Both the position numbers and the translations under genes were made by a program. This document shows, piece after piece, positions 10,795 through 16,964 of a stretch of DNA of 32,000 nucleotides (the first letter of the stretch is position 1; every line of letters starts with the position of its first letter). Under the pieces are notes generated by a model that had not been told where the DNA came from, ran no database searches, and saw only the letters and a program-made list of their open reading frames with translations. The DNA is from Candidatus Jordarchaeales archaeon (GTDB lineage Archaea > Asgardarchaeota > Jordiarchaeia > Jordiarchaeales > Freyrarchaeaceae), in contig JAWAHN010000001.1 of the NCBI GenBank assembly GCA_038889235.1, positions 1,004,499 through 1,036,498 on the forward strand, given 5' to 3'.

Positions 10795-11691
10795 CTATCT
10801 TAGCTCTTTTTCAAGGGCCTGAGCTATTAGGGGGGCTACGCTAACCTGACTTACTGGGCTAGGAATAGTATCTGTGGCGATTACGTGTTCTGCTCCCGCT
10901 TTGTATATTTTCTTTAACGCGTTATCAACAAGAATAGCGTGCGTGCAAGCAGCGATTATTGTTTTGGCATGCATATTTTTGAGTAACTGAATTGTTTTTA
11001 CAAGGGTCCCTCCTGTTGAAATTATGTCATCCACTATGATAACATCTCTTCCTTGGACTTGAAGCTGGCGTACGCCTATTTCTACTTCCGTCGAACTTAT
11101 CCTCTTTTTCTCTAGAACATCGTAATCCGTGCAGAGTACTGACGCCACAACTTTTGCCCACTGTTCAGATTCTTCATCGGGCCCTATTACAAGAGGCTCT
11201 TCCATTTTGAAGTTCTTCATTATGTATTGTGCCAGCAGGGGCATAGCGGTAAGGTTCTCAGCGGGTATCTTAAATATCTCACTTACGCTCCCTACTCGGT
11301 GCAAGTGCATATCTATCGTTATAACTTTATCTGTTCCTGTCTTCTCAATAAGAGAAGCTACTGTTTTGAGACTTAATGCCTCCCCCTTGTTAAACCGTTG
11401 GTCCTGCCTCGAGTAAGGAAAATATGGTATCACACTCAATATTCTTTTAGCTCCTAAGTCCCTTAAAGCATCCACTAGGAGGAAGTACTCTATGAGGTGT
11501 TCGTCAGGGGTATGGTGCATCGAATGTATTACTGCAACATGATACCCTTCGACGTCACCTTCCACCCTAACGTATTTTTCTCCGTCGGGAAATTTCTTGT
11601 AGTCGCAATCTATGAATGGCGCCTGAAGCATTTTTGCGACCTTAAGCGCTAAGACCTGTGATGTAGAGCCTCCCACTATTGCAAGCTTCAT
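10795..11691 (-). CDS. prs: Ribose-phosphate pyrophosphokinase
   Basis: Motifs are KFPDGEKYVR, PYFPYSRQD, IDMH, IGPDEES, EKKR, IIVDDIISTGGT and ACTHA. Confidence 0.96.
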   Translation of the reverse strand: MKLAIVGGSTSQVLALKVAKMLQAPFIDCDYKKFPDGEKYVRVEGDVEGYHVAVIHSMHHTPDEHLIEYFLLVDALRDLGAKRILSVIPYFPYSRQDQRFNKGEALSLKTVASLIEKTGTDKVITIDMHLHRVGSVSEIFKIPAENLTAMPLLAQYIMKNFKMEEPLVIGPDEESEQWAKVVASVLCTDYDVLEKKRISSTEVEIGVRQLQVQGRDVIIVDDIISTGGTLVKTIQLLKNMHAKTIIAACTHAILVDNALKKIYKAGAEHVIATDTIPSPVSQVSVAPLIAQALEKELR

Positions 11692-11799
11692 TTTTATCTC
11701 CTTCCTTTACCTAAGGCTGATGAACGCTTCCTTCTTTATAAGTCATCGATATCTTTTTAAAGGTTTAACCTTAGTTAGGGGCTCTGAGGGGAGTTATGT

Positions 11800-12351
11800 T
11801 TGGCTTGGACTATTTGGCTCTTCGGTCTACCCGGCTCTGGTAAAAGCACTATTGCTCACGAGCTGCAGGCTATACTAAAGGAGCGAGGTATTAATGCGCA
11901 AATTCTCTCGACAGACATTCTAAGAAAGGTTGTAACTCCCAAACCAACATATTCGGAAGAAGAACGAGAGATCGTTTATGGCACTCTGGTCTTTATCGCC
12001 CGTTTGCTTAACGATAATGGTGTTAACGTCATAATTGATGCCACGGCTAATAGGAATGCTTACAGGGAAAGAGGAAAAAAAGAAATCAAAAACATAATTT
12101 TCGCTTATGTTAAATGCCCCCTAGAAGTTTGCATACAACGCGAAGCAACAAGGCAGGAAACTTACGGTGCACCTAGGAGAATATATGAAAAAGGTTTGAC
12201 TGGGGAGAGCAAAACCGTTCCGGGTTTAGGTGTTCCATTCGAGGAGCCTGAAAACCCGGATGTTGTTGTCGAGTCTGACAAGCTCTCCCCCAGAGAGTGC
12301 GCTTTAAAGATTCTCGACACTTTAATGAAAAGATTTTATGCATCTAACTAG
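11800..12351 (+). CDS. Adenylyl-sulfate-kinase-like P-loop kinase (substrate uncertain)
   Basis: Has Walker A GLPGSGKST, DILRK, VIIDAT, VKCPLEVCIQRE and VPGLGVPFEEPENPD. Confidence 0.85.
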   Translation: MAWTIWLFGLPGSGKSTIAHELQAILKERGINAQILSTDILRKVVTPKPTYSEEEREIVYGTLVFIARLLNDNGVNVIIDATANRNAYRERGKKEIKNIIFAYVKCPLEVCIQREATRQETYGAPRRIYEKGLTGESKTVPGLGVPFEEPENPDVVVESDKLSPRECALKILDTLMKRFYASN

Positions 12352-13430
12352 TAGCTCTTGAGATAGGAGTTCACTTCCTTTGGATTGAACTCTTCGCACT
12401 CAAGCACGTTGTTAATGAAGTTTAAGAGTTTTCTCCGTGTTTCTGGGGTAAGTGTTGGATACCATTGAGGGTGAGATATCACTGAGCCCCGCCAGGCATA
12501 AAATGGCTGAACCACTTTGAGGAGTTCTTCGTCTCCTGTTTTTTCGAGGTAATTCTCGTAAAATAGGTCGAAAAGTTTTTTAAATGGGTCTGCAAGGTGG
12601 CCGAAAGTAAGCACACTGAAGAATATGTAGTTTATAGTCATAGCGGTCACGTCGTCAGCTGGCTCTCCCCACTCACCTCTGCTTCTGTCTAAAAGCGTGA
12701 AATCCGTTCCCTCTCTAAAAAGAACGTTCCAAGGGTGGTAATCCCCGTGAACCACACTTAACCTGTGAGCACACTTTTTGAGTTTCCACCTCCACTCAAC
12801 GCACTTTTTCTCGATCCTCAGTAAGTCTTCTTCCGTCGCATACGCGGGGTTAGGGGTATATGTGTCAAGCAGCCCCATGAGCCCCTCTCCGTGACCAACT
12901 AAGTCCCTTATTCTTCTAATGTAGATGTGAGGTGCGTCCTTTTTCTCTTTATGAATTTCCACCAGGTAGTTGGAGAGGGCTATTGCTCTATCGATATCTA
13001 ACTGTCTCAATTTCTTCTCCTCAGAAAGCCTATCTAGGTCGAATTTGTACAAATTTCCCTCAGCGTACTCCATGAGAACGAAAAACTCTTCCACGTTCCC
13101 GACAGAAACTATCCCCCCTTCCCTGGTTACCCCTCCACAGTCAAAGGAGCGAACATGCCTGGGAAGCTTATTGTACGTTTGGTGAGCCAGTAAAACAACT
13201 TGTGCTCTGTCCGGCATAAATTCGTGACCATAAGGTCCAGGAACAACAAAGCTCATAACCATCTTTTTTACTTCATTCCCCACCTTCGCCTCTATGAGGC
13301 GAGGAACACCGTAGCCTACTTCCTTTATGTCCTCTTTCTCTCCACCAAGTCTCTTAACATTCAACACCTCAACACTTTTTTCAAAGACTCGAGTAAGATA
13401 TTCTTCAAGTTTCTCTTTTGAAATAGACAA
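12348..13430 (-). CDS. Aminoglycoside phosphotransferase / choline-kinase-like protein
   Basis: Has the Brenner motif VVHGDYHPWNVLF, Mg-binding LLDRS and GEWGEPADD. It is convergent with the P-loop kinase, overlapping by 4 bp. Confidence 0.88.
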   Translation of the reverse strand: MSISKEKLEEYLTRVFEKSVEVLNVKRLGGEKEDIKEVGYGVPRLIEAKVGNEVKKMVMSFVVPGPYGHEFMPDRAQVVLLAHQTYNKLPRHVRSFDCGGVTREGGIVSVGNVEEFFVLMEYAEGNLYKFDLDRLSEEKKLRQLDIDRAIALSNYLVEIHKEKKDAPHIYIRRIRDLVGHGEGLMGLLDTYTPNPAYATEEDLLRIEKKCVEWRWKLKKCAHRLSVVHGDYHPWNVLFREGTDFTLLDRSRGEWGEPADDVTAMTINYIFFSVLTFGHLADPFKKLFDLFYENYLEKTGDEELLKVVQPFYAWRGSVISHPQWYPTLTPETRRKLLNFINNVLECEEFNPKEVNSYLKSY

Positions 13431-13556
13431 TGAAACTACACCCCCTCAAAACCTGTAGTCACTTAACTCGGGTACTTTAATTGAGAAATACCTTTCGTTA
13501 AAAGCTTAATCGTTAAACGTGTGGTTTAATTTCTTCAAGAAAAGAAGAACGGAACA

Positions 13557-13571
13557 CGCAAAGTTAAAATA
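13557..13571 (+). promoter_or_regulatory. BRE/TATA promoter of the tRNA gene
   Basis: CGCAAAG followed by TTAAAATA, about 30 nt upstream of the GC-rich tRNA start. Confidence 0.6.
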
Positions 13572-13603
13572 TTGTTTTCACTCTTCAAACACTCTAGAAG
13601 GGC

Positions 13604-13813
13604 GCCCGGGTCGCCTAGAAGAATTTCTACTTTGGGCAATGGTAGGGCGGTGGAGCCCCTAAAAAAGGGCGCCGTAGCTCGAGATCTTTCCCAAAGAAAT
13701 TTGGGGGAAGATAAACCCACTGGCGGATTCCGTATGGACGCAAGCACCCGCCGCGCGCGTTCGAATGGAAAAGGGAGATTCACTCCCTCCCGGGCATCGC
13801 GCCCCGGGCGCCA
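13604..13813 (+). tRNA. tRNA-Ser(CGA) with multiple introns (four well supported, fifth probable), CCA encoded
   Basis: Removing 13619-13639, 13654-13676, 13684-13714, ~13728-13744 and 13766-13796 gives the 87-nt GCCCGGGTCGCCTAGTGGTAGGGCGGTGGGCTCGAGACCCACTGGCGGACACCCGCCGCGCGCGTTCGAATCGCGCCCCGGGCGCCA. It has a 7-bp acceptor stem, a D-arm with GG, a 5-bp anticodon stem with loop CT-CGA-GA, a long variable arm, a GCGCG-TTCGAAT-CGCGC T-arm and discriminator G73, as expected for Ser. Confidence 0.88.
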
Positions 13814-13825
13814 CCATCCTTTAAC

Positions 13826-14317
13826 TCAGTCTAGTACATATCCTAGCTTCTTTACTAGTTCTCTCCTCTCCTCTTTCTGTTTCTCGTTTTCTACTGCTGT
13901 GACACTAGTCCCATCAACGGCCCCAATAATTGCCCGCCCAAGATCAGTTTCCGCTACTAGTATTTGGACAGGGTTACCAGTTGCTACTATTATGTTGCAT
14001 ACTGCTGGGATCCTTTTAAGGGTGTTTAGCACATTGATTGGATAAGCGTTTCTGACTAAGACAACATATGCATGTGAAGCTCCTATGGCTAAAGCGTTCT
14101 TTGCAGCTAGACTCTTCAACCTCTCGTCATTTCCATTGACTCTTACGAGACGTGGTGCTGCCTCGTTCATTGCTACGCCACATTTAATTCCGGGGACTGA
14201 CGTTAGCAGCTCTCTAAAAATATTGTCGACAGTGTATATTGTAAAGTTGGCCATCCCGCAGATAAATTGATCATCCTTCTCCTTCTCTATTGGGACGACG
14301 TGAATTTTAACACTCAT
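13826..14317 (-). CDS. Adenosine-specific kinase family (PAE2307/DUF355-like) protein
   Basis: Motifs are SVPGIKCGVAMNEA, RVNGND..L..LA.KNALAIGASH, NAYPINVLN..K..P.VC.I..AT.NP and GRAIIGAVDG. An AGGTGA RBS precedes ATG 14317. Confidence 0.85.
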   Translation of the reverse strand: MSVKIHVVPIEKEKDDQFICGMANFTIYTVDNIFRELLTSVPGIKCGVAMNEAAPRLVRVNGNDERLKSLAAKNALAIGASHAYVVLVRNAYPINVLNTLKRIPAVCNIIVATGNPVQILVAETDLGRAIIGAVDGTSVTAVENEKQKEERRELVKKLGYVLD

Positions 14318-14391
14318 GCCCAATCACCTTAAATCAGGTTCGCTGGTACCTTTTCTTAATCTTTTTGGTTTTCCGCCTTCACTTTCAAGTT

Positions 14392-15660
14392 TTAGACCGA
14401 AATTTTCGCTGAAAACGGTTCTCCAAGCAGTTTTTCTGAAGCTTTAGCGACAACTTCTCTATACTTTTCGTCCGTGTAAACTCTTATAATATTCAAAAAT
14501 CCCTTCATTACTGACACTATGTTCGACACATCTTCTAACCGTAGTACCCTCTTTCTTCCGTCCTTCCCTCTTTGAACTATCGGCAAGTTTGCAGCGTCCT
14601 CATCCATAGTCCTGTGGTAGGGAACCGACGGCAAAGTCGGCACATCTATATAAACGTTTTCCACGTCAACGCCGGCTTCCTCCGCTATTTCCTCTTCAAG
14701 CCGTCTTTTAATCGCTTCTTTGGTCATAATTGCTGAAAAAACTCCGTTCCTCACGAAAAATATCTTTTCATAGGACACTTTTGGTAAATCTCGCATCTTG
14801 AGCCTCTCGATGTAAGGCTTAGATCCTTTACATTGAAGCATAAGCCCCCACACAGAGTAGTCATCATAGTTTAAGTACTCCTGAGGGCTCACCTTTACTA
14901 TGTTTATCTCCTCATTAACTTTCTCCAGTCCTTTTTCCAAAAGAATTTGGGCAGCTCTAGACGCTTTATGAAAGTATATGCTCCTAAAAAGCTCAACCCT
15001 GGCCACAAGGAAGGATTCTAAAGTTGGTAGCGCCACTAAGTCTACCGCTAGATTTCCTTCGTGAAGGTCTATGGTGTGTATTAAGCGAAAGACGTCAATG
15101 GAGGCGAACTCTCCCCCAGTGTGGTAGGAGTCTCTCAGAATATAGTCGAGCTTGTCGCAATCAATCGAGCTAGAAATTATTTGACTTAAAAACTCTTTAT
15201 GCTTCTTCTGTAGTTTACCTACGGCTAGAAGTGCTACGTCTTTAGCGTTTAATCCAATCGACTCTACAGCGTCTTTGAGTGAAGTTTGCGTAATTATTTC
15301 CATAGTAATGTCTTCATGTGTCTTTTTAAGGTGCCTAATAAGCAGCGCTTCAAACACATGGCTGAATGGACCATGCCCCACATCGTGAAGCAGCCCAGCT
15401 ATTTTAATCATTTCTACAGCGTCGCTTTCTAAATACCCCTTACTCACTAAGGACTCGGCCATTAAATTTGAAAGGTGCATTACACCGAGGGAGTGTTCAA
15501 ACCGTGTATGGACTCCCGCAGGGTAAACAAATTCGCTTCCAGCTAACTGCCTTATTCTACGCAATCTTTGGACAGCTTCTGTATCTATCACCTTTACTTC
15601 TTCGAAATCGCATTGAATGTAACCATAAATGGGATCTTTGATCAGGATTTTTTTCTTCAC
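14392..15660 (-). CDS. HD-superfamily phosphohydrolase (COG1078, SAMHD1/dNTP triphosphohydrolase-like)
   Basis: Motifs are KDPIYGYI, QRLRRIRQL, HTRFEHSLGV, LLHDVGHGPFSH and DCDKLDYILRD. Confidence 0.92.
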   Translation of the reverse strand: MKKKILIKDPIYGYIQCDFEEVKVIDTEAVQRLRRIRQLAGSEFVYPAGVHTRFEHSLGVMHLSNLMAESLVSKGYLESDAVEMIKIAGLLHDVGHGPFSHVFEALLIRHLKKTHEDITMEIITQTSLKDAVESIGLNAKDVALLAVGKLQKKHKEFLSQIISSSIDCDKLDYILRDSYHTGGEFASIDVFRLIHTIDLHEGNLAVDLVALPTLESFLVARVELFRSIYFHKASRAAQILLEKGLEKVNEEINIVKVSPQEYLNYDDYSVWGLMLQCKGSKPYIERLKMRDLPKVSYEKIFFVRNGVFSAIMTKEAIKRRLEEEIAEEAGVDVENVYIDVPTLPSVPYHRTMDEDAANLPIVQRGKDGRKRVLRLEDVSNIVSVMKGFLNIIRVYTDEKYREVVAKASEKLLGEPFSAKISV

Positions 15661-16964
15661 TCCCCTTTCTCTCCCCTATTCTTTCTAAAAATTTTTTCAC
15701 ATACTTTTTTGACATCTTCTACATATCTTTTTTCCGCGAAAACATAAACCTGCATCAGACTATTATACCTCGCTTTCAAGGTTTGAACTAAATTAGGGTC
15801 GTATTCCTCAAGTCCCCGCCCTCCTGCCCTCACCTCGCTCACTTCGGTGTAGTAATCTCGTGGTAGGTATATGAAAACATCTATTTCTGATATGTCAACA
15901 TCGTGCTGAAGCTTCCTTACTTCCATAATTATTTCGTTTCGCAGCTCATGATAGTCGACCATCCCGAGGGCGGCTCTAGAAACTTTTTCTGGAAATTCGC
16001 TTATGTGTGCGGCATATGCTTTTTTGGGAATTCTACGGTATCTCAATCTGTATGCTAGCTTTCTAGCCTCCTCCACACTGCTATTTGCAAGCATATTTAT
16101 GAACTGGTTGTCGTCGAGAAAAAATAGGTGATAGAAGTCATAATCTCCAAGCCCCTTTAGCAAGAGCTCTAATGCTAGACAACTGGCCGCCAGAGTGGTA
16201 TGATGCAAGTAAACCTTTTTCATCATCCAGAAACGGCTTTCCAGAACGCTTATCGCTGCCCCTATAGCGTCAGTCCTGTTTTTTAATGCAAGCCTTCCAT
16301 CCCCGTCTATTTCAAAAGAGGAGAAAATCCGGTCGTCATAACTTTGAGGAACCCCTGTGTAGTAAGCATCTCTTTTCAAGTAGTCGAGTCGGTCAGCATC
16401 CAGCGGACCATTCACTAATTGGCTCAAGTATCTTGGCTTTCCCTCTCCCATTATTATTTCTACAATGCGGCTTCTGTCTCTCTTACCATACCCTTCTTCC
16501 TCCAAAACCTCTCTTAATGGTATTGCCGCATCCATTATCTCTGGGTTCTCCTTCTGAAATTTCTTATAGCAAACTCCCTCAACTATTTCGCTAACAAATT
16601 TCTCATGCGGTGGTATTATGTTTGGATAAAACCTGCGAAAGAAGTCGGACACTACGTGGCTGAAAACAGGTGTTGCCACATCGTGAAGTAGCGCGGCAAG
16701 CCTTACAAATCTAACTTCTTCGTCGTCTAGTGGTATTTTTGACATCGAAATTATCTTATCGACGCACGCTCGTACGCCGAGGCTGTGCTGAAACCTTGAA
16801 TGTTCTGCCCCTGGGTAAACTAAGAATGCGAAGTCAAGCTGCTTAATTCCTCTTAATCTTTGCAATTCGAACGTATCTAGGATCTTCTTGTCAGTGGAAG
16901 TTAGGAAAATATCACCCCAAACAGAGTCCCTTACTTTCCATTCTTCTGTGCGCAAAAACTTCAC
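15657..16964 (-). CDS. Second HD-superfamily phosphohydrolase (COG1078-like)
   Basis: Motifs are RDSVWGDI, QRLRGIKQL, HSRFQHSLGV, LLHDVATPVFSH, DADRLDYLKRD and YLHHT. It overlaps the downstream HD gene by GTGA. Confidence 0.92.
   Translation of the reverse strand: MKFLRTEEWKVRDSVWGDIFLTSTDKKILDTFELQRLRGIKQLDFAFLVYPGAEHSRFQHSLGVRACVDKIISMSKIPLDDEEVRFVRLAALLHDVATPVFSHVVSDFFRRFYPNIIPPHEKFVSEIVEGVCYKKFQKENPEIMDAAIPLREVLEEEGYGKRDRSRIVEIIMGEGKPRYLSQLVNGPLDADRLDYLKRDAYYTGVPQSYDDRIFSSFEIDGDGRLALKNRTDAIGAAISVLESRFWMMKKVYLHHTTLAASCLALELLLKGLGDYDFYHLFFLDDNQFINMLANSSVEEARKLAYRLRYRRIPKKAYAAHISEFPEKVSRAALGMVDYHELRNEIIMEVRKLQHDVDISEIDVFIYLPRDYYTEVSEVRAGGRGLEEYDPNLVQTLKARYNSLMQVYVFAEKRYVEDVKKVCEKIFRKNRGEKGE

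Follow-up and report, generated by a model that had tools for sequence, protein, structure and literature searches.

A tRNA-Ser(CGA) gene interrupted by five predicted BHB introns lies at 13604-13813 of the window, a 32,000-nt stretch of the genome of a hot-spring Jordarchaeales (Asgard) archaeon. On balance, the likely reading is that the gene yields a functional tRNA, matured in a partly ordered fashion by a two-subunit EndA endonuclease and the RtcB ligase. The genome encodes two EndA paralogs (L108 and L109) and RtcB (L110), whose activities are predicted from sequence. The best match of the catalytic EndA (alpha) is a solved enzyme of crenarchaeal type (3p1z, E 4e-47), and the alignment runs gap-free over the specificity-loop insert, which the partner subunit lacks. 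In the A. pernix EndA, this specificity loop confers broad specificity (PMC3241643).

Anatomy and conservation of the tRNA-Ser(CGA) gene

The introns were placed at 15/16, 30/31, 37/38, the variable arm and 59/60 (I1 to I5) with a home-made beam-search parser, run on genome-wide candidates and awarding small bonuses for BHB features. In the unspliced window sequence ARAGORN reports no tRNA and Rfam has no match at the locus; with the five introns taken out and the exons joined in silico, ARAGORN returns an 87-nt tRNA-Ser(cga) with G73 and a long variable arm. The mature tRNA is a canonical cloverleaf with conserved bases and a 7/5 fold, and the same 87-nt Ser(cga) cloverleaf is obtained after intron removal in four family members. 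The features are as follows.

13564-13571, plus strand: TATA-like box upstream of the tRNA gene, assigned from sequence, with a putative function
13604-13618, plus strand: exon 1, tRNA positions 1-15, with the acceptor 5' strand and the D-stem 5' strand G10-U13 (13613-13616)
13619-13639, plus strand: intron I1 at 15/16, 21 nt, hBHBh', with 4/3/3 central/inner/outer pairs; in all seven orthologs
13640-13653, plus strand: exon 2, positions 16-30, with the D-loop, the D-stem 3' strand G22-C25 (13645-13648) and anticodon stem 27-30
13654-13676, plus strand: intron I2 at 30/31, 23 nt, hBHBh', with 4/4/3 central/inner/outer pairs; in all seven orthologs
13677-13683, plus strand: exon 3, a 7-nt micro-exon, G31-G37, with the anticodon CGA at 13680-13682
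13684-13714, plus strand: intron I3 at the canonical 37/38 site, 31 nt, with a degenerate central helix (2/4) and the anticodon stem as outer helix
13715-13727, plus strand: exon 4, A38, the anticodon stem 3' strand and the variable-arm 5' strand
13728-13744, plus strand: intron I4 in the variable-arm loop, 17 nt, relaxed, with 3/4 central and three inner pairs
13745-13765, plus strand: exon 5, the variable-arm 3' strand, the T-stem 5' strand and the T-loop to A59
13766-13796, plus strand: intron I5 at 59/60, 31 nt, hBHBh'
13797-13813, plus strand: exon 6, U60 to G73 plus the encoded CCA

The central helix is complete (4/4) in I1, I2 and I5 and has three of four pairs in I4, with shuffle P values from 5e-5 to 0.011, and the parse scores of 84-95 compare with 70 or less for decoys. 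An independent DNA run spans 13501-14245 with zero differences, so the gene is not an assembly artefact. Three RNA runs compared with 10800-16799 gave no reads or contigs on the tRNA gene, the raw-read run, sampled at 3%, giving zero reads; a related strain was present in one of the RNA contig sets, though without the tRNA gene. A tRNA-Sec, suggested by the acceptor-stem sequence, was rejected, the anticodon being CGA rather than UCA and the fold 7/5 rather than 9/4; a separate, intron-containing Sec-like gene (G000:C1:335999-336141) resembles the annotated Sec tRNA of G006. The acceptor, anticodon and T stems of tRNA-Ser(CGA) are unlike those of the other three Ser isoacceptors, which resemble one another, and its C52-G62 pair is unusual. 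The neighboring genes have no evident link to the tRNA: 11800-12351 encodes an adenylyl-sulfate-kinase-like protein that scores under the family cut-offs, and 14392-15660 an HD-domain dNTP-triphosphohydrolase-like protein.

The seven orthologs come from the Jordarchaeaceae-level genomes G000 (this genome; 2.14 Mb, 95% complete), G003, G004 and L106 and from the Freyarchaeaceae G005, G006 (the complete Freyarchaeia-1 genome, CP147778.1) and G009. The PRPP synthetase of the host is 80% identical to that of a Ca. Jordarchaeales MAG and 60-62% identical to those of Freyarchaeia. Intron number varies from three to five, with I1, I2 and I3 kept throughout. I5 is absent from the three Freyarchaeaceae orthologs, and I4 from that of G006, whose variable arm is compact; these absences confirm both as inserts. 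I4 and I5 lie outside the coordinates given in an earlier note on this DNA, which had placed the whole anticodon in a 7-nt exon between I2 and I3. That exon is just as described, and G31-G37 is identical in all seven species across the two families. Within the family of this genome the exons share 94-98% identity and I1-I3 48-81%. I5 shows a two-sided change from G57-C to A57-U among orthologs, and the TATA-like octamer is identical, at equal distance, in G003 and L106. Leader pairing with G73-C75 was discarded as a conserved element, being lost in Freyarchaeaceae. At the 3' end of I5, 13789-13795 repeats seven nucleotides of the acceptor 3' strand (13803-13809) exactly, and G1-G5 pair with this copy in the best fold predicted for the precursor; this is seen in this species and not in the orthologs.

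Such interruptions are common in this genome: the parser placed about 2.5 introns per gene in about 43 tRNA genes. These counts are approximate because the parser mis-parsed several Leu genes, Tyr and one gene at C1:907829, and returned no Trp, His, Gly(GCC) or Arg(CCU). Five introns also occur in Arg(GCG) (G000:C1:484983-485157, minus strand; 20/21, 29/30, 37/38, 50/51 and 58/59), which has an 8-nt anticodon exon, and Phe(GAA) has the same 30/31 and 37/38 pair and 7-nt anticodon exon as Ser(CGA). Asp(GUC) (G000:C1:741358-741516), with introns at 32/33 and 37/38 around a 5-nt anticodon exon, is a stricter nested case than Ser(CGA). There are two tRNA-Arg(CCG) genes (G000:C6:391-468 and C1:487191-487347), and the only intron-free tRNA found is on a 5.7-kb contig that may be contamination. 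The three-intron Ser(CGA) gene of G006 (L123:1412-1590; G006:C1 about 1647848-1648026; CP147778.1) is missing from the published Freyarchaeia-1 tRNA table (PMC11291895, Supplementary Data 4), whose low-scoring "Ser AGA" entry was re-parsed here as Cys(GCA); one of its "Met CAT" entries likewise parses as Glu(CUC), interrupted by an intron at 34/35.

The D-arm intron and its bearing on the second intron

The earlier note had I1 ending in GGGC, a copy of the D-stem 3' strand that would pair with G10-U13. The pairing is borne out (GGGC at 13634-13637, shuffle P 0.0006), and the boundary is not: ending the intron there gives only one of four central pairs, and in the BHB register the intron runs two bases further, to 13639. 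This end is favored by the long I1 inner helix of the G006 ortholog, and it leaves a short D-loop, resembling the one in Ser(GGA) of this genome and those in compact Ser(CGA) genes of Asgard archaea. An alternative register at 16/17 (13620-13638), with 4/4 pairs in the four family members, is possible. Since the end of any 15/16 intron must complement positions 10-13, the motif itself accounts for the likeness of GGGC to the D-stem 3' strand, and the "copy" is an ordinary central-helix strand with no added design. An exact D-stem copy is found in I1 of only two of the seven orthologs. Of 15 introns at 15/16 in two genomes, counting those of Ser(CGA), no more than four form the G10 pair.

I2 was likewise said to use G22-C25, G26-U28 and C32-C34, and a full hBHBh' motif was found there: C25-U28 pair with 13671-13674 in the central helix, G22-G24 with C32-C34 in the outer helix, and a 4-bp inner helix completes the structure. 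Only five of 100,000 base shuffles of the intron reach this quality (P 5e-5). The proposal built on it was that I1 sequesters G10-U13, frees G22-C25 and thereby promotes I2, so that I2 would leave before I1 and I3 in a refolding cascade. Several observations are in keeping with such a cascade. The I1 and I2 motifs share no bases and can coexist, the two introns occur together in all seven orthologs, and folding of the full precursor populates the I1 central helix (P 0.57) but not the D-stem. At 37 C the cost of the I2 central helix alone is 0.2-0.9 kcal/mol lower with I1 present, and the native I1 perturbs I2 by 0.6-1.0 kcal/mol less than shuffled I1 inserts, of which 9% and 1% match it. The folding model leaves out tertiary contacts, modifications and enzyme binding, and D/T-loop contacts of this sort could stiffen the D-arm once I1 is deleted.

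Against this, the coupling between I1 and I2 computed from constrained partition functions is about zero in this genome (0.0 kcal/mol at 37 C, +0.4 at 65 C) and ranges from -0.8 to +1.4 kcal/mol across orthologs. Deletion of I1 shifts the predicted I2 cost by -0.7 to +0.4 kcal/mol here; over the orthologs the shift varies in sign, between -2.5 and +2.0, and at 65 C the effect on the I2 central helix is reversed in three of four family members. What chiefly competes with the I2 motif, whether I1 is there or not, is a slipped helix, G22-C25/G31-C34, and not the D-stem, which is missing from the best fold of the delta-I1 precursor as well. Comparative evidence points the same way: the exact D-stem copy is rare, the G10 pair is absent from 11 of the 15 introns at 15/16, and four of the seven 30/31 introns in this genome, those of Met/Ile2(CAT), Val(GAC), Val(TAC) and Ile(GAT), stand in genes with no D-arm intron, beside intact D-arms. 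Their motif costs of 1.3-7.1 kcal/mol compare with 5.8 for delta-I1 Ser at 37 C. No association between 15/16 and 30/31 introns was detected in this genome (2/7 vs 7/35, P 0.63), and tRNA-Ile2/Met(CAT), which has introns at both 15/16 and 30/31 in G006, here has 30/31 and 59/60 and no D-arm intron. The claim that I2 is favored while I1 is present is not supported, and a helper role for I1, like the cascade built on it, appears unlikely on the modeled energies and the comparisons.

Splicing order at the anticodon

In the I3 central helix only U33-A and C34-G pair, with C32.U and G35.A mismatched, and the intron prefers its own hairpin as best fold. The count is two of four pairs in G000, G003 and L106 and three of four in G004, G005, G006 and G009, so that three pairs are not reached here, and the intron matches the "no H" category published for 37/38 introns. 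Its inner helix has six pairs, is rich in wobbles and stands in BHB register without I2 removal. Other I3 cut registers, whether for another anticodon or for A37, were discarded by hand with at most 2/4 central pairs and no inner helix, as was exon skipping through a motif joining the I2 5' site to the I3 3' site (1/4 pairs). A weak 37/38 helix serving as a kinetic timer that protects micro-exons was also rejected, as the eight 37/38 introns that follow a micro-exon average 3.38 central pairs and the 18 that do not average 3.44 (P 0.75). The 37/38 introns of the only three Ser tRNAs to carry one (13684-13714 and those of the genes at C1:648534-648680 and C2:433039-433205) show 2, 2 and 3 central pairs, and eight of nine other 37/38 introns show four; the long variable arm might aid recognition.

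The earlier note held that I3 needs the mature anticodon stem and that I2 must therefore be removed first. In this genome the I3 outer helix is a single pair, G31-C39, with I2 present, and becomes at least the full 5-bp anticodon stem with I2 out. The complete I2 and I3 motifs are mutually exclusive, G31 being unpaired in one and paired in the other and C32-C34 being common to both. With I2 present the I3 motif costs 9-15 kcal/mol here, and removal of I2 is predicted to lower this by 3.2-7.4 kcal/mol between 37 and 70 C, with a drop of 1.9-10.7 kcal/mol over the same range in five other orthologs. In the seventh, G006, there is no drop: the end of its I2 mimics positions 29-30 and pairs with 40-41, giving I3 a 3-bp substitute outer helix, and 2-bp substitutes form with I2 in place in G003 and L106. 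The I3 central helix itself is unaffected by I2, and with the constraint confined to that helix, taking I2 out of this genome's precursor gains 0.3 kcal/mol or nothing at 65 C. On the geometry, the modeled energies in six of seven orthologs and precedent in other systems, removal of I2 before I3 is quite probable. "Obligatory" is too strong a word, since G006 shows no energy gain and the central-helix gain is nearly nil at 65 C; the order is a strong bias rather than a proven rule, and an instance of a known splicing principle. With all other introns gone I3 would still cost 5-7 kcal/mol here, which suggests that it is removed late or last.

It is rather unlikely that there is no real order, with a broad-specificity EndA cutting I3 through its inner helix or a relaxed motif regardless of I2 and fast ligation alone protecting the micro-exon. 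The EndA alpha subunit does carry the loop linked to relaxed specificity, the six-pair inner helix is in register with I2 present, and G006, G003 and L106 make their 2-3 bp substitutes; in this genome, however, two central pairs, a 1-bp outer helix and the high cost of the motif with I2 in place speak for an order, and the 37/38 intron is always last in Cyanidioschyzon merolae. The conservation of three intron positions across two families might be taken to favor the suggestion that the order is a regulated checkpoint on tRNA-Ser(CGA) supply, but we find nothing in its support and regard it as very improbable. Close introns and exons of 5-9 nt are routine in this genome, which has at least 14 internal exons no longer than 9 nt besides its high intron load; identical layouts occur in unrelated isotypes, and the number of introns in the orthologs is not fixed. 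Ser(UGA) is also present, and can read UCG by wobble, which makes Ser(CGA) a poor control point. Least probable of all is that I3 is too degenerate to be removed, the gene decaying or the parse being a pattern artefact. The 2/4 central pairs and the strong competing hairpin would fit such a reading, but the exons are nearly invariant while the introns drift, the identical 2/4 motif recurs in three species and in Ser(GGA), this is the sole Ser(CGA) found in the genome, and the parse scores stand above those of the decoys.

Maturation pathway and known systems

From the gene anatomy, conservation, motif geometry and presence of enzymes demonstrated here, we infer a pathway for the partly ordered maturation favored above. 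In the full precursor I1, I2, I4 and I5 would all be able to form motifs open to cleavage, and their order of removal would not be fixed. I3, with its weak central helix and its need of the anticodon stem as outer helix, would wait for the removal of I2 and probably be among the last introns cut, or the very last. RtcB would have to seal G30-G31 before the I3 cut, as otherwise the 7-nt exon, with a single base pair to hold it, would be lost; the anticodon stem can form across the 30/31 nick, so that ligation must presumably outrun the second cut. The splicing order would then be a by-product of the sites of intron insertion and not a device.

In nested archaeal pre-tRNA introns the last motif forms only once the others are removed (PMC3978253), and nested multi-intron pre-tRNAs are known from Thermoproteales (Sugahara 2007; Tocchini-Valentini 2009; as cited in PMC3978253, PMC3728597 and PMC3241643). 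The present gene shares with these several BHB introns per tRNA, a motif dependent on removal of a neighbor and a two-subunit EndA with the specificity loop. It differs in its Asgard host, in having five introns where Thermoproteales have at most three per gene (PMC4033280), and in that the dependent motif needs removal of I2 for its outer helix rather than, as in Thermoproteales, for its central helix; the dependence is for this reason strong and not absolute. The tRNA-Ile2(CAT) of Freyarchaeia-1 has introns at 15/16, 30/31, 37/38 and 59/60 (Valentin-Alvarado 2024, PMC11291895, Supplementary Data 4), and the published coordinates, re-parsed on G006, give the same layout of these sites and a 7-nt anticodon exon; it is of another isotype and has four introns and a 4/4 central helix at 37/38. 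Splicing order is not discussed in that paper. Asgard tRNA genes of these families have been reported to carry 2.2 inserts per gene, and up to five, alongside a two-paralog EndA (bioRxiv 10.64898/2026.10.13.758758); order, nesting and micro-exons do not figure in its main text, and it gives splicing of the newly found inserts as not yet shown in Asgard cells. In C. merolae, which likewise has D-arm, 37/38 and T-loop introns, order tracks motif stability and the 37/38 intron, even without a central helix, is last by RT-PCR (Soma 2013, PMC3728597). That organism is a eukaryote, its motifs fold independently, and no anticodon micro-exon is described in the parts of the study drawn on here. Ordered splicing of close introns, the 15/16, 30/31 and 37/38 layout with a 7-nt exon and five introns per gene are thus already published, and the gene shows neither a new mechanism nor regulation.

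The papers we located do not treat splicing order in Asgard multi-intron tRNAs. The Ser(CGA) gene is a clear-cut and extreme case of a known kind, with five introns and missed by ARAGORN, and its three-, four- and five-intron orthologs together with the 30/31-only controls of the same genome form a ready set of substrates for the question of how so small an exon is kept during cleavage and ligation by Asgard enzymes. A tentative extension, which we consider rather unlikely, is that recognition of the 2/4 intron at 37/38 depends chiefly on the folded body of the mature tRNA, as with eukaryotic splicing endonucleases, and that this intron is therefore strictly the last of the five to be cut, with cleavage coupled to RtcB ligation so that the 7-nt exon is kept. 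If this is true, the Asgard precursor would offer a natural substrate on which to test how recognition shifted from the motif to the mature domain.
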